NCBI GenBank assembly: GCA_015063895.1
Contig: SVTG01000009.1
Location: 4,739-68,738 of the forward strand
Length of the DNA: 64,000 bases
Direction: 5' to 3'
Origin: Oscillospiraceae bacterium
Lineage (GTDB): Bacteria > Bacillota > Clostridia > Oscillospirales > CAG-272
Shown: in pieces, positions 5,468 through 23,051 of the stretch
Numbering within the stretch: position 1 is the first letter of the stretch
Layout of the letters: each line of letters opens with the position of its first letter
Program-made: the position numbers and the translations under genes
Notes under the pieces: generated by a model
What the model was told of the DNA's origin: nothing
Databases searched by the model: none
Seen by the model: the letters and a program-made list of their open reading frames with translations, nothing else

Positions 5468-5475
5468 ATCGGCAT

Positions 5476-5745
5476 AAAGGCTATGACCGAAAATCAGTAC
5501 GTATGGTGTTCACGCGCAGAGAGCCGCCGGGTGGTGTAAGGCGGTAGGGGCACGATACCGAATACATTTCGCGAGCTGTGCACCGAAAGGCCTTTTGCCC
5601 GGTAGGCTGTAACGGGAACGCCCGTTAACGCGTGAGGACATGTTTGTGTCGCTAAGGCCGTGCCCGTGAGAGCACGGTAAAATGAGGTGGTACCGCGTAT
5701 CTTTTGATCCGCCCTCGCTGTTTCACAGAGGGGCGGTTTTTTTGT
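5476..5745 (+). ncRNA. T-box riboswitch (probable Tyr specifier UAC)
   Basis: AGAGA and GGTGTAAG stem I motifs; GAA-TAC-A specifier loop (5563-5565); T-box AATGAGGTGGTACCGCG at about 5681-5697; terminator CCGCCCTC..GAGGGGCGG-TTTTTTT. Confidence 0.85.
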
Positions 5746-5790: not shown

Positions 5791-7416
5791 ATGGCACAGC
5801 AAACGATCAACGTACTTGTAACCCTCCCCTTTATCCTGCTCTTTTTCGGCTTGATGATCTTTGTGGGAATTTATTGCCGCAAGCACGCAACAAACGTCAA
5901 CGGCTTTGTGCTGGGCGGACGCAGCGTGGGGCCCTGGCTCACCGCCTTTGCCTTTGGCACCTCCTACTTTTCGGCTGTTATTTTCGTTGGCTACGCAGGG
6001 CAATTCGGTTGGAATTTCGGTCTTGCCTCCACGTGGATCGGTCTTGGCAACGCCTTTATCGGCTCCCTGCTCGCATGGGTGATCCTTGGTCGCCGCACGC
6101 GTATTATGACGCAGGCTCTCGGCTCGCGCACGATGCCGGACTTTTTTGAAAAGCGCTACGCCTCCAAGCCCTTGAAGATCGCGGCCTCCTTTATCGTGTT
6201 CGTATTCCTGATCCCCTACACCGCATCGCTTTACAACGGCCTTTCGGGCCTGTTCCACGCAGCCTTTGATATTCCTTACGCAGTTGTAGTGATCGTTATG
6301 GCAGCGCTGACGGGTGTATACGTCATTTTCGGCGGCTACATGGCCACCGCCATCAACGACTTCATTCAAGGCATTATTATGCTGGTGGGTATCGTTGCGG
6401 TGATCGCAGCGGTATTAAACGCCAACGGCGGTGCAGGTGAGGCTATTTTCAAGCTTTCGCAGATCCCCTCGACCTACCCCGAAACGCTGGGGCAGCAGGG
6501 CGCCTTCACCTCATTCTTCGGCACCCAGCCCCTTTACCTGCTCGTGGTGGTCCTGCTGACCTCGCTCGGCACGTGGGGCCTGCCGCAGATGGTGGGCAAA
6601 TTCTACTCGATCAAAAACGAGGACGCCATCAAAAAGGGCACCGTGATCTCCACCCTGTTTGCGATCGTCGTAGCAGGCGGCTGCTACTTCCTTGGCGGCT
6701 TTGGCCGACTTTACACCACCAACCCCGCGATCTACAAGGACGGGATCCTCGGTGGCGTTGTATTAAACGACCGCATCGTGCCCGCCATGCTCGCTTCCCT
6801 GCCCGCGATCATTATCGCATTGGTGATCGTGCTGGTGCTTTCCGCCTCGATGTCAACACTCTCCTCGTTGGCTCTTACCTCCTCCTCAACACTCGCTCTT
6901 GACGTGATCCTGCCTGCCGTGAACAAAAAACGCGAGAAAAAGGTAAATGAGACAAAATCGGTTCTCATTATGCGATTGCTGATCGTATTTTTCATTGCCC
7001 TTTCTGCCGTCATTGCCATTCTCAAGGACACCGTATGGGCAGACTCGGTATTTATTGCACAGATGATGGGCATTTCCTGGGGCGCGCTGGCAGGTGCATT
7101 CCTTGCCCCGTTCCTGTACGGCCTTTACAGCAAAAAGATCTCAAAGCCCGCCGTTGCCACCTGCTTTGTGTTCGGCACGGGTCTTGAGATCGTGCAGCTT
7201 CTGATCAGTATGAAGGTGTTTACCGTGTCCGGTGGCTTCTTTGGCTTTATCTTTAAGAACTCGCTCTACTCCGGTGTGTTTGCCATGCTCGCAGGACTTG
7301 TGCTGGTACCGCTGGTCAGCGCCTTCACGCAGAAATGGGTACCCCAAAGCACCGAGGAAACCTTCAGCTGCTTTGACTGCTGCGTAACCACCGATATCAC
7401 CGACTCGCTCGGCTAA
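5791..7416 (+). CDS. Sodium:solute symporter (SSS/PutP family), probably amino-acid uptake
   Basis: FVLGGRSVGPW, SYFSAVIFVGYAG, FGGYMATAINDFIQG, SASMSTLSS; many TM helices. Confidence 0.9.
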   Translation: MAQQTINVLVTLPFILLFFGLMIFVGIYCRKHATNVNGFVLGGRSVGPWLTAFAFGTSYFSAVIFVGYAGQFGWNFGLASTWIGLGNAFIGSLLAWVILGRRTRIMTQALGSRTMPDFFEKRYASKPLKIAASFIVFVFLIPYTASLYNGLSGLFHAAFDIPYAVVVIVMAALTGVYVIFGGYMATAINDFIQGIIMLVGIVAVIAAVLNANGGAGEAIFKLSQIPSTYPETLGQQGAFTSFFGTQPLYLLVVVLLTSLGTWGLPQMVGKFYSIKNEDAIKKGTVISTLFAIVVAGGCYFLGGFGRLYTTNPAIYKDGILGGVVLNDRIVPAMLASLPAIIIALVIVLVLSASMSTLSSLALTSSSTLALDVILPAVNKKREKKVNETKSVLIMRLLIVFFIALSAVIAILKDTVWADSVFIAQMMGISWGALAGAFLAPFLYGLYSKKISKPAVATCFVFGTGLEIVQLLISMKVFTVSGGFFGFIFKNSLYSGVFAMLAGLVLVPLVSAFTQKWVPQSTEETFSCFDCCVTTDITDSLG

Positions 7417-16061: not shown

Positions 16062-16313
16062 AAAGCACCTCCTTCCCCGTATTTTATCGAAAGTATTGAC
16101 CCATACCCCATAATTTAATCAGATCAGTTTTCCTCAACTGCGTTGTTTTTTGCCCCGTATGCCTATATTTTACAAAAAAATCAGGCTTTTGACAAATGTC
16201 GACAATATTTGTTAAAAAACCATAAATTTCCATTTTTCGCCCTTGACCTTTTCTTTTTGACAGGATATAATAAAGCCGTATATCCAATTCACTCACACTG
16301 CAAGGAGGCTTTT

Positions 16314-16556
16314 ATGAAATCCACCGGCATTACGCGCGCAGTCGATAATCTTGGCAGAATCGTATTACCCATGGAGCTAAGACGCGCCTTTCATATCAAC
16401 ACCGACGATAAGCTTGAAATTTTTACACAGGGCGACTCGATCGTTTTAAAAAAATGTCTGCCTGCCTGTGCCTTTTGCGATACGCGTGACGGTCTGAACA
16501 GCTTTGAAGGCAACTATATTTGCGACGCTTGCCTCACTAAGATCAAACACTTATGA
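16314..16556 (+). CDS. abrB: AbrB/MazE/SpoVT family transition-state regulator
   Basis: MKSTGITRAVDNLGRIVLPMELRR..C-terminal CxFC..ICxxC. Confidence 0.85.
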   Translation: MKSTGITRAVDNLGRIVLPMELRRAFHINTDDKLEIFTQGDSIVLKKCLPACAFCDTRDGLNSFEGNYICDACLTKIKHL

Positions 16557-17152: not shown

Positions 17153-17438
17153 TACAAAAAGGAGAGCGAGCCTACAGGGTGATGTTCTTAGCGGAGAAAT
17201 GAAAGATCTCACTAAGCGCGAGCATCGCATTTGACCGGTCAAATAAAAAATGGGCTAAGCCCAAGCCCTTATACACACAAAGAGAGAACAAATCGGCTGA
17301 AATGTCGAAAAGTTCTCTCTTTTTCTGTTGGTGTTCCGTTTAAAGTCATAAGGCTCTGAATTGCTCTGCAATTAGGCAAGCGTTATGATAGGATTGCCCT
17401 TATAATCTAAAGCTTGGCGAAGCCGATCATCATAATGC

Positions 17439-17720
17439 GTAGCCGCACGGGAATCGAACACATAAGGTCCGACAGGATATATTTTCCGCAATACTTCATT
17501 GAGTTTTTCTTAAATATCTGTATATTTCTCAAAAAACTCAACTTGTCTTGCAAAAAATCTATTCCTGTGGGACTGCCAAGGCACCCTGCGGCAAATAAAT
17601 TTTTGATGGATTTTGCCGTGGCAAGGTGCGGACAAGTGCGGACTTTTCAAGCCTTGACGCGTCAAAAGACGCGAAAATTTATTGCCGCAGGGCTTGTGGG
17701 TTCGACTCCCGTGCGGCTAC
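17439..17720 (+). mobile_element. MITE/REPIN-like non-autonomous element, copy 1
   Basis: 21-bp terminal inverted repeats GTAGCCGCACGGGAATCGAAC / GTTCGACTCCCGTGCGGCTAC; about 98% identical to the inverted copy at 22291-22573. Confidence 0.75.
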
Positions 17721-17749
17721 CATAACTTGCCCACAGGGCCATCATAGTT

Positions 17750-17785
17750 GTAGCGTGAATACTCCGCTTGGAGTATTCACGCTAC
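17750..17785. repeat. Perfect GTAG...CTAC hairpin (REP-like or terminator)
   Basis: GTAGCGTGAATACTCC-GCTT-GGAGTATTCACGCTAC, 16-bp stem. Confidence 0.6.
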
Positions 17786-17803
17786 TCGCTGTCCTTTTTT
17801 ATT

Positions 17804-18772
17804 TTATGCCCAACTCATCGTGGTGGGCTTTTCTTCTTCAATGATGATGTCCTTGAGGAAGGTCACCGCCTTGCGAAGGCCCTCGTCGATCGTCATCAGA
17901 CTATCCTCATGCTCAATGGAAAGCACACGGTCGTAACCGACCAGACGCAGGTTGCTGACAAGATCACGCCAGTAGGTTTCACCGTTACCGTAGCCAACGG
18001 TACGGAAAATCCAGGAGCGATGCAGCTCATCACCGTAGTGCTTGGTATCCAGCACACCGTTCACGGACGTGTTATAATGATCGATCTTGGTGTCCTTTGC
18101 GTGCACGTGATAAATAGCACCCGCCAAAGCACGAATAGCGGCCACGGGATCAATCCCCTGCCAGATCAGATGCGACGGGTCAAAGTTGGCACCGATCACG
18201 TCGCCCACAGCAGCACGCAGCTTAAGCAGCGTTTCGGGGTTGTATACACAAAAGCCGGGATGCATTTCAAAAGCGATATGATCAACACCGTGCGCCTTGG
18301 CAAAAGCACCGGCCTCGCGCCAATAAGGGATCAGCTTCTCATTCCATTGCCAGTCAAGGATCTTCAAAAAATCCTCCGGCCAAGGGCACGTCACCCAGTT
18401 CGGATATTTTGAGCCCTCGCTATCACCGGGGCAACCCGAGAAGGTAATGACCGTATCCACGCCGAGCTTTTCGGCAAGTAGAACGGCATTGCGGAAATCC
18501 TTATCAAAGGCGGCGGCAATGGCTGAATCGGGGTGCAGTGCATTGCCGTGCGCTGCCAGTGCGCAGATCTCAACGCCGTATTTTTTAAAGGTAGCGACAA
18601 ATGCATCAAATTTCTTCGCATCTGCCAGCAGCTCCTCAGGATTACAATGTGCCTTACCGGGATAGCCGCCGGCACCGATCTCAACAGTCTTAACGCCGAG
18701 AGAAGACAAAATAGAAAGTGTTTCGTCAAGCGATTTCGCGCCGTACAAATTAGCTAATACACTAAGCTTCAT
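17804..18772 (-). CDS. Sugar phosphate isomerase/epimerase (TIM-barrel, AP_endonuc_2)
   Basis: FEMHPG, NFDPSHLIWQG, HVHAKD, LSIEHED metal-binding motifs. Confidence 0.85.
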   Translation of the reverse strand: MKLSVLANLYGAKSLDETLSILSSLGVKTVEIGAGGYPGKAHCNPEELLADAKKFDAFVATFKKYGVEICALAAHGNALHPDSAIAAAFDKDFRNAVLLAEKLGVDTVITFSGCPGDSEGSKYPNWVTCPWPEDFLKILDWQWNEKLIPYWREAGAFAKAHGVDHIAFEMHPGFCVYNPETLLKLRAAVGDVIGANFDPSHLIWQGIDPVAAIRALAGAIYHVHAKDTKIDHYNTSVNGVLDTKHYGDELHRSWIFRTVGYGNGETYWRDLVSNLRLVGYDRVLSIEHEDSLMTIDEGLRKAVTFLKDIIIEEEKPTTMSWA

Positions 18773-18858
18773 TTTTATTTATCCTTTTCTGATTGATAAA
18801 AGGGGCTGTCACCACGGTGACAGCCCCTTTGTTACGGTTTCTACACCGTTAATTTAAA

Positions 18859-20460
18859 TTACTGTGCGTCGTCAGCAGCGGGAGCGTCCTCAGCGGGAGC
18901 TTCAGCTACGTCAGCCTCTGCAGCGGCTGCTGCGGCGGCAGCTGCCTTCTTTTTCTTAGGCAGAATGACCACAAATACAACTACTGCGGCACCACCGCCA
19001 AGAACAACAACTGCAGCAACGATAATAATGATAATACCGTACTTCTCAAAGAAGGTTTCTTCTTCCTCTTCCTTCTTGTTTGCATTGTTGAAGCGGTTTG
19101 CGATATCTTCCTGAGACTCGAACTCGATCGGGCCCTTATCAGCCTCTTCGCGGCCTGCAGCACCGTCGTCTACGTAACCAAGACGCTCAATGTATGCATC
19201 GATCACTGCCTGAACCTTAGCGTTATCAGCAGCACCGGAGGTCTTCAAAGAATCAGGTGCATTCGCATGACCGGGGTTCAGCATAGCCCACTGCCATACA
19301 GGCATCGTGCCGGGCGTCGTATCAGCAGCGCTCCAGTTGATGACACCGGTCTCCATGTAGGAGCCTACCATCCCTGCAGCATAGTAATCCGTAGGCTGAG
19401 CTGCGTCCTCATCAAGGAACTTGTCATATGCGTTAGCAATGTAAGGAGCCTTATTAGCAAGCGTGAAGACTGCAGCTGCATCAGACTTAGCACCTGCATA
19501 GTCGTTGAGAATATCACTCTTGAACTCGTCGTCTTCGGCAAAGAGAGCGCCAAAGCGAGTCAAGCTGTAGATCTTAGAGTTCAGCGCACCGCTCTCAAGA
19601 GCTACGTCGAAATCAACATCCCAGTTATTCTGAGCAAGAGCATAGATGTAACTGTAATCCTTCTCGTTGTAGGTGGGCATATCGGTCAGCGAGAACATAT
19701 TGTAGGCAGGGTTGCCGTTCACGATAGCATTAATGCCGTCGTCGTAAATAAAGGTATCACCCCAGCCCCATACCATGATGATCTGGTAGTTTGCATACTC
19801 AGAGGCAGGCATATCGGGGTAGAAGTTCTTCAGGAATGCGTTTCTGGGCTTGAAGTTGAAGTCAGCGGCATACTCGCTGCTCATCCAGTCGATCGTCTTC
19901 TCGTTGATGAACCAAACAATTGCGTTTTTGCCGCTCTCAAGCGTCATGTTAACACCATCATTGGTCAGGAAATTGAAGGTGGTATCGTTGGTGATACCGT
20001 TGGAAAGATCGCTGTCAGAATCGGTAAACTTACCGTACTTATCAGCCACTGCATCCTCAATGATCTTACCGGGAAGAAGGTCAACCTTGGAGATGAACTT
20101 CTTATCGCGTGCCCAGTAGAGATAGAAGGGCGTGCCACTACCCCAAGGATCAAGCTTGGCATAGGGGGATTCGTCTGCTGCGGGTTCAGAAAATTCCACA
20201 GCACGCAGAATGCTGATCGTGGAGAGGTCAATAGCGGTATCGCCGTTGTTATAGATCTCCATGAAGTCAAGCGCGTGGCTATTGGTTCCGGTTGCGCCTA
20301 CATACTTGAAAACGTGCGTATAGGCTGCGATCTCGGAAATGAAGAGTGAGGGGGCATCAGTCTTAGTAGAACCGTCGTACGTTGCGGCAGAGGCAGGCAG
20401 AGTTGCCAGCACGGACGCAAGCATAAGAACAGTCAGAAGAACTGCAATAATTTTACGCAT
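18859..20460 (-). CDS. Secreted surface protein with lamin-tail-like N-domain and C-terminal TM anchor
   Basis: Signal peptide MRKIIAVLL..ASA; LFISEI..DFMEIYNNGDTAIDLS; C-terminal TM plus KKKK and an Ala/acidic tail. Confidence 0.6.
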   Translation of the reverse strand: MRKIIAVLLTVLMLASVLATLPASAATYDGSTKTDAPSLFISEIAAYTHVFKYVGATGTNSHALDFMEIYNNGDTAIDLSTISILRAVEFSEPAADESPYAKLDPWGSGTPFYLYWARDKKFISKVDLLPGKIIEDAVADKYGKFTDSDSDLSNGITNDTTFNFLTNDGVNMTLESGKNAIVWFINEKTIDWMSSEYAADFNFKPRNAFLKNFYPDMPASEYANYQIIMVWGWGDTFIYDDGINAIVNGNPAYNMFSLTDMPTYNEKDYSYIYALAQNNWDVDFDVALESGALNSKIYSLTRFGALFAEDDEFKSDILNDYAGAKSDAAAVFTLANKAPYIANAYDKFLDEDAAQPTDYYAAGMVGSYMETGVINWSAADTTPGTMPVWQWAMLNPGHANAPDSLKTSGAADNAKVQAVIDAYIERLGYVDDGAAGREEADKGPIEFESQEDIANRFNNANKKEEEEETFFEKYGIIIIIVAAVVVLGGGAAVVVFVVILPKKKKAAAAAAAAAEADVAEAPAEDAPAADDAQ

Positions 20461-20610
20461 GGTTAGCACCTTCCTTTTAATATTGGTACACCCATTATAA
20501 TACAATTTCTGCTTTTTGTCAATAAGTTTTTTTAAAAATAGAGCAGTTTTTTTGTGCATTTTAATTAATTATAATAAATTTAAAACGCGCACACGCGCGC
20601 CGCGCGCCCG

Positions 20611-22137
20611 TTAGACCTCCGACGGCAGCATGAGATACCTCGTTTGCCCCCACACGTTAGGATCGCACAAGGCAGAGCTTTCCAGCCCGTTTGCGTTAGC
20701 GAGCGCCTCGGGCGGTAAAGCAAATCGCCGCGAAATTTCCCAAAGCGTTTCACCCTTTGCGGGATAGTAAAATTCAAGATCGCAAGCCCCATCGTTTTGC
20801 ACAGGAGAAAAGCACACCTCCTGCACAGGTGCAAAGCTGACGGAAGCACCACCGAGAATAGAAACAGCCAATTCGGGCATCAGACGCACGATCCCCTGCT
20901 CTTGCTGTACACGGCAAAGCGGCACCGAAGCAAGAACCGAGAACGCTTCTGCCTCACCCTCAAACGCAACGCAAAACGGAATTTTAGCTTCACCTACGCC
21001 CCATTCCTCTCCTGCGTGGTAAAGCAAATGACAATGTACGCTGCCCCTGATGCTCACCTGCCCTGCATCAGCATTCCTTTCGCCGATCTCAGCGTCGGCA
21101 CAGACATCCACCACAATAGCGCCCGACGGCAGCCCGATCTCCGACAGCGTCGGTGTAGCGCTAAGGCTGTAATTCTGATTTTTGCAAACCGTTGGCACCC
21201 AATTTTTCTGGGGTGTCGTGCGGCACTCACTCTGCATATGGGGCAGGAATAGATCCTTTACAAAGGGCACCGTTTCGTGGCCTGCGGCCTCCGCCTGCAA
21301 TACCGCACCGACCGAAAGTGAAATACGGTTGCCTTCAACCGTTGTGCGCAGCTCCTCAACCGTACCGACAGCACGCGCCATATCCTCACCGCACACGCCC
21401 TCCAGCGACAACAAGGTCGTAAAGGGTAAGGAGCGCGTCACAGCAACGGGCAAGCTTCCACCGGTCTCCTTTGCTTGCTCGCCCTCCTCGCAGCAAAGCA
21501 AGCTCACCACCACCTCGCCGCGGCAACGGATACCGTCGTGCGTTGCCGTGACCTCAGGCAAAAAAACCTCACCGCGCGCAAGGATCACCTGCGGCGCCTT
21601 GAGGTGCGTATCAAAGCTTTCCTGCAATTCAAGCGTATCGCTCACCGTAGCAAAGTGTCGGCCACACTCCACGGCATCGCCCAATACGCACACCTGCTCC
21701 TGCTCCTCGGGTGAAAGCGTAACACCCACAGGTCTGCTCCGATACTCTCCTACCTGCGCCTGCACACGGCAGCGCACCGCAAGACGGCGCGGCGCTATCA
21801 CGCGACCGACCACAACGTCGGGCACCAAAAACGCACACGGCTCCGCCCCTTCCCCCTGTAGCGGCACGGAAAAGGTGTAGGTATCCTCCATATCGGTATG
21901 GTACAGCTTCCCATCCGCCCCCGCATACAGCACGTCATAGCAAACGCGTCCCGAGAACTCGGCATTTCCGCCACTGATAAAGCGCCGCGGCGGCAATACA
22001 CGCGGCCACACACGAAGCAAACGGCTGATCTCGCCCAGATAATCAGGCACGGATATCTCGCTGTTTTGCTCAAAATTTACACTTTGCGTATTCATTTGTG
22101 CCTGCGTGCACCAAAACTTGTCTTCACGTTGTTCCAT
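20611..22137 (-). CDS. SPOCS (DUF3794) plus LysM spore coat morphogenetic protein (SipL-like)
   Basis: ISVPDYLGEISRLL, YDVLY repeats; C-terminal LysM YYPAKGETLWEISRRF..LANANGL. Confidence 0.7.
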   Translation of the reverse strand: MEQREDKFWCTQAQMNTQSVNFEQNSEISVPDYLGEISRLLRVWPRVLPPRRFISGGNAEFSGRVCYDVLYAGADGKLYHTDMEDTYTFSVPLQGEGAEPCAFLVPDVVVGRVIAPRRLAVRCRVQAQVGEYRSRPVGVTLSPEEQEQVCVLGDAVECGRHFATVSDTLELQESFDTHLKAPQVILARGEVFLPEVTATHDGIRCRGEVVVSLLCCEEGEQAKETGGSLPVAVTRSLPFTTLLSLEGVCGEDMARAVGTVEELRTTVEGNRISLSVGAVLQAEAAGHETVPFVKDLFLPHMQSECRTTPQKNWVPTVCKNQNYSLSATPTLSEIGLPSGAIVVDVCADAEIGERNADAGQVSIRGSVHCHLLYHAGEEWGVGEAKIPFCVAFEGEAEAFSVLASVPLCRVQQEQGIVRLMPELAVSILGGASVSFAPVQEVCFSPVQNDGACDLEFYYPAKGETLWEISRRFALPPEALANANGLESSALCDPNVWGQTRYLMLPSEV

Positions 22138-22166
22138 ATTCCCTCTCCTTTTTTGGAAGTCGTTTT

Positions 22167-22195
22167 ATTGTATGCTTTCAAGGATCGGAATATGA
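22167..22195 (-). promoter_or_regulatory. SigE-type mother-cell promoter
   Basis: The minus strand reads TCATATT-N14-CATACAAT. Confidence 0.7.
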
Positions 22196-22213
22196 ACAAG
22201 CCCGCCAAAGCAC

Positions 22214-22287
22214 CCCTTCGGTCAGCTTCTCTTGCCGCACCATGATAAAGCGGGGTTGTTTTGAAAACAGCAGCGGCAAGGGTTCGA
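22214..22287 (+). repeat. 74-bp direct repeat, copy A
   Basis: Identical to 22710-22783. Confidence 0.9.
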
Positions 22288-22290
22288 TCC

Positions 22291-22573
22291 GTAGCCGCAC
22301 GGGAGTCGAACCCACAAGCCCTGCGGCAATAAATTTTCGCGTCTTTTGACGCGTCAAGGCTTGAAAAGTCCGCACTTGTCTGCACCTTGCCACGGCAAAA
22401 TCCATCAAAAATTGATTTGCCACAGGGTGCCTTTGGCAGTCCCACAGGAATAGATTTTTTGCAAGACAAGTTGAGTTTTTTGAGAAATATGCAGATATTT
22501 AAGAAAAACTTAATGAAGTATTGCGGAAAATATATCCTGTCGGACCTTATGTGTTCGATTCCCGTGCGGCTAC
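22291..22573 (-). mobile_element. MITE/REPIN-like non-autonomous element, copy 2 (inverted)
   Basis: Reverse complement of 17439-17720 with 5 substitutions and 1 indel by my count; sits at the GTAC that is uninterrupted in the sister repeat (22788-22791). Confidence 0.75.
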
Positions 22574-22627
22574 CCACACCATACGAAAAGGGCCCCCATT
22601 CGGGAGCCTGCCGCGATGACAGGGGTC

Positions 22628-22701
22628 GTTGTCCTCGGCTTTGCCGAGCACATCAACACACCGTTACACGGAGGTTGCGTTGTCCTCGGCTTGCCGAGCA
22701 C
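22628..22701 (+). repeat. Two copies of a small hairpin repeat
   Basis: GTTGTCCTCGGCTT(T)GCCGAGCAC at about 22628 and 22678. Confidence 0.7.
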
Positions 22702-22709
22702 TGAAGCAG

Positions 22710-22783
22710 CCCTTCGGTCAGCTTCTCTTGCCGCACCATGATAAAGCGGGGTTGTTTTGAAAACAGCAGCGGCAAGGGTTCGA
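22710..22783 (+). repeat. 74-bp direct repeat, copy B
   Basis: Identical to 22214-22287. Confidence 0.9.
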
Positions 22784-22835
22784 GGCCGTACCCACACCAT
22801 ACGAAAAGGGCCCCCGTTCGGGAGCCCTTTTCGTA

Positions 22836-22920
22836 TGGTGCGGGTGACAGGGGTCGAACCTGCACGCCTCACGGCGTAAGATCCTAAATCTTATGCGTAT
22901 GCCAATTTCGCCACACCCGC
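22836..22920 (-). tRNA. tRNA-Leu(TAG)
   Basis: GCGGGTGTGGCGAAATTGGCATACGCA-TAAGA-TTTAGGA-TCTTA-long variable arm-GCAGGTTCGACCCCTGT-CACCCGCACCA, 85 nt. Confidence 0.95.
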
Positions 22921-23051
22921 GAATTTCTTGAGCGGTGTGTGGCGAAATGGGTTCGCACACACCCGCAAATGTTATGAGTGGTGTGTGGCGAAATGGATTC
23001 GCACACACCCGCGAATTTTTGAGCGGTGTGCTGCAAAATTTATTCACACAC
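22915..23051. repeat. Three tandem 46-bp hairpin units upstream of tRNA-Leu
   Basis: ACCCGC..GAG(C/T)GGTGTGTGGCGAAATGG(G/A)TTCGCACAC units start at 22915, 22961 and 23007 (third degenerate). Confidence 0.85.

Follow-up and report, generated by a model that had tools for sequence, protein, structure and literature searches.

A folded, TA-inserting element of about 280 bp in genomes of uncultured ruminant-gut Clostridia

Two copies in the window and their relatives

The window analysed here is a stretch of 64,000 nucleotides from an Oscillospiraceae bacterium (GenBank assembly GCA_015063895.1, contig SVTG01000009.1, positions 4,739 to 68,738 of the forward strand), and it holds two inverted copies of a non-coding repeat of about 280 bp, the element with which this report is concerned. 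Aligned by BLAST, 17439-17720 and 22291-22573 are 97.88% identical over 283 columns, differing by 5 substitutions and 1 indel, much as the initial annotation of this DNA had counted. A repeat search of the window resolves the same pair into two inverted arm pairs, 17436-17579 with 22433-22576 (144 nt, 98%) and 17578-17720 with 22291-22433 (143 nt, 98%), and recovers the terminal inverted repeats that had been seen on both copies, which can be extended to 48 nt at 75%. The conserved limits of the element run from TA to TA, in the form TA-G...C-TA, and place copy 1 at 17440-17719 (280 bp, plus strand) and copy 2 at 22292-22572 (281 bp, minus strand), arm A (see below) coming first on the strand named in each case. 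The outermost G and C of the slightly wider limits belong to the flanks, and this position is G, C, A or T among the genome's copies.

Copy 1 is located between a phosphopantetheinyl-transferase gene and a gene for a xylose-isomerase-like TIM-barrel protein, nested in another short repeat, and copy 2 lies downstream of tRNA-Leu(tag) (22836-22920, minus strand) and upstream of a SipL/LysM gene. The 4.6 kb separating the two copies hold housekeeping genes, as assigned by Pfam, and are ordinary chromosome rather than cargo.

In copy 1, read on the plus strand, the left terminal inverted repeat (17440-17466, beginning TAGCC) and the right one (17693-17719, ending GGCTA) are the 5' and 3' strands of a terminal helix, with two long hairpins between them. 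Arm A (17467-17573) has covarying stems and a nearly invariant tip at 17513-17526, which reads AATAT-CTGT-ATATT in this copy and AATAT-CCGC-ATATT in the majority of copies. A short 3-bp hairpin (17574-17583) follows, and then arm B (17584-17692), which has internal loops, an invariant tip, AAGT-GCGG-ACTT, at 17634-17646, and many G·U pairs, which are confined to the strand read here.

The copy number was determined by BLAST against the genome and related metagenome-assembled genomes (MAGs), a check that had been proposed at the outset. Three contigs of the present genome carry four full copies, 98-100% identical (two on C36 and one each on C1 and C34); the genome also has truncated copies and 38-nt derivatives left by deletion between short direct repeats within the element. 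Of 36 other genomes in the genus, 17 contain relatives at 68-96% identity; 24 genomes, one for each of as many other families of the order, contain none. Furthermore, the exact terminus is present in 61 stretches of a species-representative collection, all of them from ruminant-gut MAGs of uncultured Clostridia/Oscillospiraceae, with no match in viral contigs (0 stretches), plasmids or phages. A maximum-likelihood tree of 38 distinct copies contains genome-specific clusters, which argue for repeated amplification in bursts within lineages, as well as several lineages inside one genome. The element is real and recently active: its copies have lately increased in this genome, and in related species they have done so repeatedly. 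The initial annotation had proposed exactly such a recently active non-autonomous mobile element, and the near-identical copies on three contigs, the genus-wide family and the empty sites described below bear it out; it had also reckoned with a case in which only two copies existed and relatives had no empty alleles, and what was found is four copies and orthologous empty sites.

A self-BLAST of the genome (G000) revealed a second family, of 278-279 bp, flanked by TA and with a different terminus, TAGGCAAG...; its four copies, 96-99% identical, lie at G000:C3:25498-25775, C9:147791-148069, C14:21798-22076 and C24:75568-75845. A sister copy of 276 bp, at G000:C21:22349-22624, has a third type of terminus, TAGCCGAAGAGG. 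Both hairpin-tip words are common to the family of the window copies and the TAGGCAAG family, and the two-tip pattern at its usual spacing occurs in more than 116 stretches, which among the matches listed come exclusively from MAGs of uncultured ruminant-gut Clostridia. From these stretches 84 elements were extracted as a superfamily set, and 47 clean-ended copies entered an alignment. There are at least 12 types of terminal sequence among the 84 elements, with several types in one genome, and the resolved ends start TAG[C/G]C and finish G[C/G]CTA without exception. Length is 276-281 bp in the 47 aligned copies and ranges from 276 to 282 bp across the superfamily. No open reading frame (ORF) is conserved, any frame being open in at most 7 of 38 aligned copies of the family and at most 3 of 48 of the superfamily, in keeping with the initial annotation. 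A sample of 251 genomes and 97 genera of the GTDB family has the superfamily signature in 3 of the genomes and 2 of the genera. No published description of the element was found in the literature, supplements lying outside the scope of that search; the superfamily is previously undescribed and confined to a few uncultured ruminant-gut Clostridia.

Junctions, empty sites and surroundings

A scan of the whole genome for the terminus, covering 1.86 Mb in 36 contigs (93% complete) and allowing up to 4 mismatches, returned 16 matches, one of which is the 3' end of tRNA-Glu and the other 15 of which are element-like. All 15 begin TA-GCC or end GGC-TA, and the base outside may be G, C, A or T. Because this outer base is variable, the GTAG...CTAC of the window copies is really N-TAG...CTA-N, and GTAG, which had been taken for the terminus of the element, has to be given up as such. 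Likewise, the "CCA" that had been read at the end of copy 1 owes its CA to the flank, and is unseen at other copies.

A paralogous empty site lies beside copy 2. The left flank of this copy is an 80-nt direct repeat (22208-22287) that ends in terminus-like GGGTTCGA...TA, and a second copy of the repeat, 99% identical, is found at 22704-22783. At 22784-22795 the latter is joined to the repeat at 22789-22826 via a single TA (22789-22790), giving ...GGCCG-TA-CCCACACC, where the filled site reads ...ATCCG-TA-[element]-TA-CCCACACC. Mapping the flanks of relatives' copies back onto this genome yielded three orthologous empty sites: the first reads CATCT-TG-CCAAG here and CATCT-TA[element]TA-CCAAA in the relative, the second TGGTG-TA-AGGGG here and TGGCG-TA[element]TA in the relative, and the third is located to within 1-2 nt. 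The paralogous and the three orthologous empty sites have one dinucleotide where filled sites have two, TA in two instances and TG/CG in diverged orthologues, and neighbouring tandem elements share one TA. Junctions, empty sites and TA-sharing tandem copies together establish that the element inserts at TA and ends with TA on either side.

The choice of target is not confined to the dinucleotide, as 28 of 176 flanks (88 distinct elements) start G[C/G]C, compared with 2.4% of TA sides in this genome. The preferred target is a TA beside G[C/G]C, which resembles the end of a resident element, and tandem and nested copies arise as a consequence. Tandem, head-to-head and nested copies are all common, and copy 2 itself abuts terminus-like sequence beside tRNA-Leu.

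The repeat in which copy 1 is nested (17359-17435 and 17721-17809) consists of short hairpins spaced by CATAAC words, and exists without the insertion in genomes G027 and G035 (L155, L156, L158). In a low-depth contig from sequencing run X7, positions 17432 and 17724 are joined with one letter added, and comparison with the paralogues of the flanking repeat suggests that the contig comes from a further copy of that repeat and is not a clean empty allele. At 17174-17333 lies a distinct repeat, about 158 bp long, of which the related genomes G035, G006, G027, G008 and G025 have many copies at 72-83% identity.

On the side of copy 2, a hairpin downstream of tRNA-Leu(tag) is duplicated at 22571-22608 and 22789-22826, and the duplicated hairpins bracket a 496-bp repeat unit that holds the element. 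The tandem duplication of this unit, downstream of the tRNA gene, occupies 22208-22845, its 80-nt repeat being 99% and its 38-nt repeat 97% identical, and contains at about 22608-22640 a fragment like the 3' part of tRNA-Leu. A contig of run X4 joins 22213 to 22710 with no mismatches, skipping the 496-bp unit and copy 2 with it; this join may be a graph artefact, because the joint falls in a 74-nt shared repeat. A 46-bp tandem repeat (22907-23051; 3.2 copies, 83% matches) overlaps the 5' end of tRNA-Leu and extends upstream.

Elsewhere in the window, a T-box leader (5474-5719, plus strand; 96.9 bits, gathering score 93) precedes a sodium:solute symporter gene (5791-7416), and an ORF with a MazE-type antitoxin domain (16143-16556, plus strand) has a 4-base overlap with the start of the phosphopantetheinyl-transferase gene. 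In the rest of the genome, G000:C7:59584-66250 is a locus for YD/RHS-repeat-like proteins, in which a 199-amino-acid gene is duplicated at a distance of 1.6 kb (98% DNA identity over 1232 bp).

The fold and the candidate movers

The minimum-free-energy fold of the element, at -137.6 kcal/mol (z = -13.8, with none of 200 shuffles as good), comprises the terminal helix and two long arms, the arms being those named in the initial annotation; the opposite strand folds at -129.9 kcal/mol (z = -12.3). RNAalifold applied to 38 copies of the window family gives 100 pairs, 62 of them with two-sided changes. In the alignment of these copies 94.6% of cells are paired versus 84.4% in shuffles, two-sided changes occur in 64 of 104 pairs versus 40 in shuffles and 20-36 when the partners are slid, and covariation is 0.34 versus 0.155, the observed values being reached by none of 500 shuffles. 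The corresponding figures for the superfamily alignment (48 members) are 93.6% of cells versus 69.2%, two-sided changes in 72 of 89 pairs, and a covariation of 0.622 versus 0.189 in shuffles and at most 0.132 when slid. Across the superfamily, 23 of the 27 pairs of the terminal helix show double changes, the foot pairs T-A, A-T and G-C alone never varying. The termini of 21-27 nt pair in 94-95% of cells. Taken alone, the figures for the terminal helix are no proof of pairing, because matching terminal repeats are a feature of any transposon family; the covariation inside both arms is proof. The evidence that a Y-shaped fold is maintained by compensatory changes is strong in both alignments, and the description of the element as highly structured stands. 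The invariance of the tips in the superfamily set results from selection by tip pattern, the tips being already nearly invariant in the family set. Pairing of the two tip loops with each other (CCGC with GCGG) was considered and rejected, as 27 of 38 copies are fully complementary compared with 25.0 ± 1.1 in shuffles, a difference that is not significant (157 of 2000 as high).

The arms differ in their wobble pairs. Arm B has 203 G·U cells versus 17 A·C (21 columns versus 2) in the superfamily set and 106 versus 21 in the family set, whereas the two kinds are symmetric in the terminal helix (44 versus 48) and in arm A (37 versus 43). The excess therefore indicates that arm B is constrained on one strand, implying a single-stranded form, either RNA or DNA.

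Both repeats are probably independent insertions of a non-coding, non-autonomous element resembling a miniature inverted-repeat transposable element (MITE), which is moved in trans at TA. An enzyme supplied in trans would join or cut the TA-G junctions, and might recognise paired or folded ends and conserved tips instead of a fixed terminal sequence. The default candidate for such an enzyme would be a TA-specific transposase of the IS630/Tc1 type, and the main alternative a recombinase with a 2-bp TA crossover acting on a circular junction.

As had been stated for the window, no mobilising enzyme is encoded in it, Pfam finding no transposase, integrase or recombinase among its 59 ORFs. A number of observations from outside the window count against movement of a MITE-like element in trans. 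The IS630/Tc1 idea, which had been raised early on, is half sustained, in that the duplicated TA fits the junctions but DDE_3, the domain of IS630-type transposases, is above cut-off in none of 40 genomes of the genus, with one weak match in G018. This genome lacks rve, DDE_Tnp_1 and IS110 domains as well as DDE_3, and among five copy-rich genomes rve is found in one and DDE_Tnp_1 in none. No pair of termini encloses an ORF in any locus examined; the maximum spacing is about 560 bp, and spacings of 556 bp represent nested elements. No gene family recurs next to the element, the largest cluster among 624 ORFs around 112 elements having 6 ORFs at 2 loci. Furthermore, the variety of terminal types, at least 12 with several per genome, is hard to reconcile with one sequence-specific transposase, and the G·U excess of arm B is unexpected for a purely double-stranded DNA substrate. 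No longer elements with the same ends were found in genome contigs, viral contigs, plasmids or phages, and a self-BLAST of the genome for repeats resembling insertion sequences (IS) returned only paralogous genes and short repeats. The enzyme search covered DDE_3, rve, DDE_Tnp_1, IS110, Y1_Tnp/RAYT and serine recombinases. The absence of an enzyme is weak evidence, because every genome here is a MAG, a kind of assembly from which IS present in many copies often go missing, and an IS may have been lost in binning.

A different emphasis, possible but on balance improbable, is that the element serves chiefly as a mobile gene encoding a structured RNA. Either arm B or the entire Y would act as RNA, in a role such as processing or stability element, guide or protein scaffold, and DNA mobility would merely spread it. 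The compensatory changes in every helix, tips that remain invariant while the stems vary, and a wobble excess limited to arm B would all be accounted for in this way, although folded single-stranded DNA tolerates G·T wobbles too. Against this reading, no promoter was found to be conserved, the single weak site of this copy lying within shuffle expectation and its -35 hexamer being unconserved in the alignment; there is no orientation bias toward neighbouring genes, 8 copies being co-oriented and 6 anti-oriented in tandem contexts, a test that rests on crude gene calls at 23 usable loci of 47; and no Rfam family comes near threshold, the best match being to a microRNA hairpin model at 19.7 bits, where the gathering score is 51.8.

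More speculative, and rather doubtful, is the proposal that the element's own fold is the substrate of transposition, with arm B read in single-stranded form and perhaps acting as RNA too. Base pairing would then draw the ends into a three-way junction, at whose TA-G foot an enzyme that reads structure would act, perhaps a host protein outside the known transposase families, and the terminal sequence could drift while pairing holds. If true, this would be a structure-specified movement of DNA distinct from those of IS630, RAYT and IS200/IS605.

It is unlikely that a serine-type site-specific recombinase moves the element as an excised circle, in which the joined ends would make a long, near-perfect palindrome centred on TA that recombines with an end-like TA target, the apparent duplication being a 2-bp crossover. 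Such a scheme agrees with the TA flanks and the single dinucleotide at empty sites, with the enrichment of end-like sequence at targets and with the TA shared by tandems, and serine recombinases are present in 28 of 40 genomes of the genus, the present one having a single 236-amino-acid gene of the resolvase type. However, no recombinase tracks the element, none having been found in G035, G030 and G021, where the terminal-repeat pattern is matched 19, 24 and 11 times; circle junctions were not observed, and most targets share little except TA and a weak RSC preference.

The likeness of the ends to tRNA has several sources. Of 20 positions in the terminus, 17 agree with the 3' end of tRNA-Glu(ctc) in reverse complement, roughly half of them being the universal T-loop word, and in copy 1 the matching bases lie in the right terminal inverted repeat; the word GTTCRA recurs near the ends in many families; and copy 2 sits beside tRNA-Leu amid duplicated tRNA-flank sequence. 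Even so, it is very unlikely that the element derives from a tRNA, mimics one or is left over from the att sites of integrases at tRNA genes. ARAGORN calls no tRNA or transfer-messenger RNA (tmRNA) in the element and Rfam likewise gives no match, a T-arm-like local hairpin in the termini is paired in 65.5% of cells versus 65.7% in shuffles with no double changes, and the termini of the sister families are unrelated in sequence to the tRNA-Glu-like one, so that tRNA mimicry or derivation, as the initial annotation had conceived it, is not upheld for the fold. In addition, insertion sites are scattered and mostly away from tRNA genes, and the window has no integrase. The likeness would seem to be a resemblance of sequence in one family, not a mimic, and may be due to chance or be specific to that family. 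In the genome as a whole (93% complete), ARAGORN finds 39 tRNA genes and no tmRNA gene; at G000:C17:34850-34979, a promoter-like stretch is followed by an apparent 5' part of a tRNA that ARAGORN leaves uncalled, and that departs from tRNA form about 37 nt in, some 70 nt before the contig end.

Scarcely credible, and largely refuted, is movement of the element as a REPIN-like doublet of repetitive extragenic palindromic (REP) sequences by a REP-associated tyrosine transposase (RAYT, an HUH enzyme of the Y1 type), a GTAG-based idea of the initial annotation. Both window copies happen to read GTAG...CTAC, three RAYT-like genes are present in the genome, and conservation across families is limited, as in REPs, to pairing and a short word at the terminus. 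Against this, the outer G varies, the termini have no hairpins of their own, and a TA duplication is present; the RAYT-like genes contain or are flanked by their own, different REPs of the GTAGGGG type, and occur in element-free genomes such as G031 and G015, and no Y1 transposase is found in the copy-rich genomes G035 and G036, the latter being 99% complete and having 36 terminal-pattern matches. Two of the RAYT-like Y1 genes, at G000:C17:22327-22878 (L093:1315-1866) and G000:C1:36580-38090, have GTAG-type REP words inside their frames, and the gene on C1 has arrays on both sides, their repeat unit being about 125 bp long and composed of GTAGGGGCG-type REPs.

An assembly artefact or simple local duplication, conceivable for a MAG of 36 contigs and a repeat of a size often found at contig ends in relatives, has practically no probability left, being refuted by copies with different flanks on three contigs, by diverged relatives in many independently assembled genomes, and by contigs from four public runs, which cover both junction regions of the window.

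With independent insertion of a MITE-like element, moved in trans at TA, as the preferred explanation of the two repeats, the broader point is that small genomes nearly without recognisable transposases still carry diversifying and recently moved elements of about 280 bp, in which selection has kept the fold and not the terminal sequence. The question that this raises is what moves such elements, and whether the fold is for transposition or for an RNA role. The superfamily is well suited to the discovery of an enzyme, as it offers many natural variants, compensatory changes, conserved tips and clean TA junctions. From a practical standpoint, repeats of the element interrupt the assembly of MAGs from this ruminant-gut genus, and may be confused with tRNA fragments or REPs.

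Comparison with known elements

In common with MITEs, the element is small and non-coding, and has terminal inverted repeats, a target-site duplication (filled versus empty sites) and multiple dispersed copies. Termini shared with an autonomous IS, the remaining hallmark of a MITE, were not seen among pairs of termini, an absence that carries little weight in genomes that are all MAGs. With the IS630/Tc1 group it has the TA duplication in common, but not a cognate DDE_3 transposase in the host. IS200/IS605-derived elements (palindrome-associated transposable elements, PATE) have subterminal hairpins, no inverted termini, no duplication, a fixed target of 4-5 nt and a Y1 transposase. The element does not fit this pattern, as it has inverted termini and a TA duplication and copy-rich genomes are without Y1_Tnp.

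REP and REPIN systems are characterised by a conserved GTAG (or CGTC) word, palindromic terminal units, and a RAYT gene that has the repeats on either side and follows their distribution, none of which was found for the element. REPINs are described as long-lived non-autonomous palindromic repeats (PMC3337134, PMC3733652, 10.1101/2022.05.22.493013). The element is like them in that what is conserved is pairing plus a short terminal word, not the full sequence, and unlike them in having no conserved GTAG or REP-type terminal hairpins, in its TA duplication and in being untracked by a RAYT.

The closest parallel in insertion is with RUP of Streptococcus pneumoniae, described as a non-coding repeat of 107 bp with terminal inverted repeats, inserted at TA, whose termini match those of IS630-Spn1 and which has a tendency to insert into, or next to, other mobile sequences (PMC2229807). 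RUP and other IS630-linked MITEs are, like the element, small, non-coding, bounded by terminal inverted repeats, inserted at TA and found near mobile sequences. RUP, however, is 107 bp long and has the ends of IS630-Spn1, whereas for the element of about 280 bp no IS with matching ends and no DDE_3 was found; and, unlike RUP as described there, the element has a covarying three-helix fold and terminal sequences that differ between families.

Correia elements, too, have a TA duplication. In the same source, the Correia/NEMIS repeats of Neisseria are abundant and MITE-like, without an identified mover, and their stem-loops matter at the RNA level; they are 107-155 bp long and form a single stem from both ends (PMC2229807). 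The likeness lies in abundant MITE-like repeats with stem-loop folds and no identified moving enzyme. Correia elements of 107-155 bp have a single stem, whereas the present element has two internal arms with conserved tips, and neither a site for integration host factor (IHF) nor processing by RNase III, which enter the comparison from the Correia side, is known for it.

In overall shape, the CIR repeats of alpha-proteobacteria (Caulobacter, Brucella) provide a further counterpart; they are described as having a length of about 110 bp, 5' and 3' ends that are unpaired, and a partly MITE-like character (PMC2229807). CIR repeats share with the element two long hairpin arms with a linker, a short conserved motif exposed at the tip, and a non-coding, intergenic nature. 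Unlike CIR repeats, the element has ends that are paired and clear junctions of insertion at TA.

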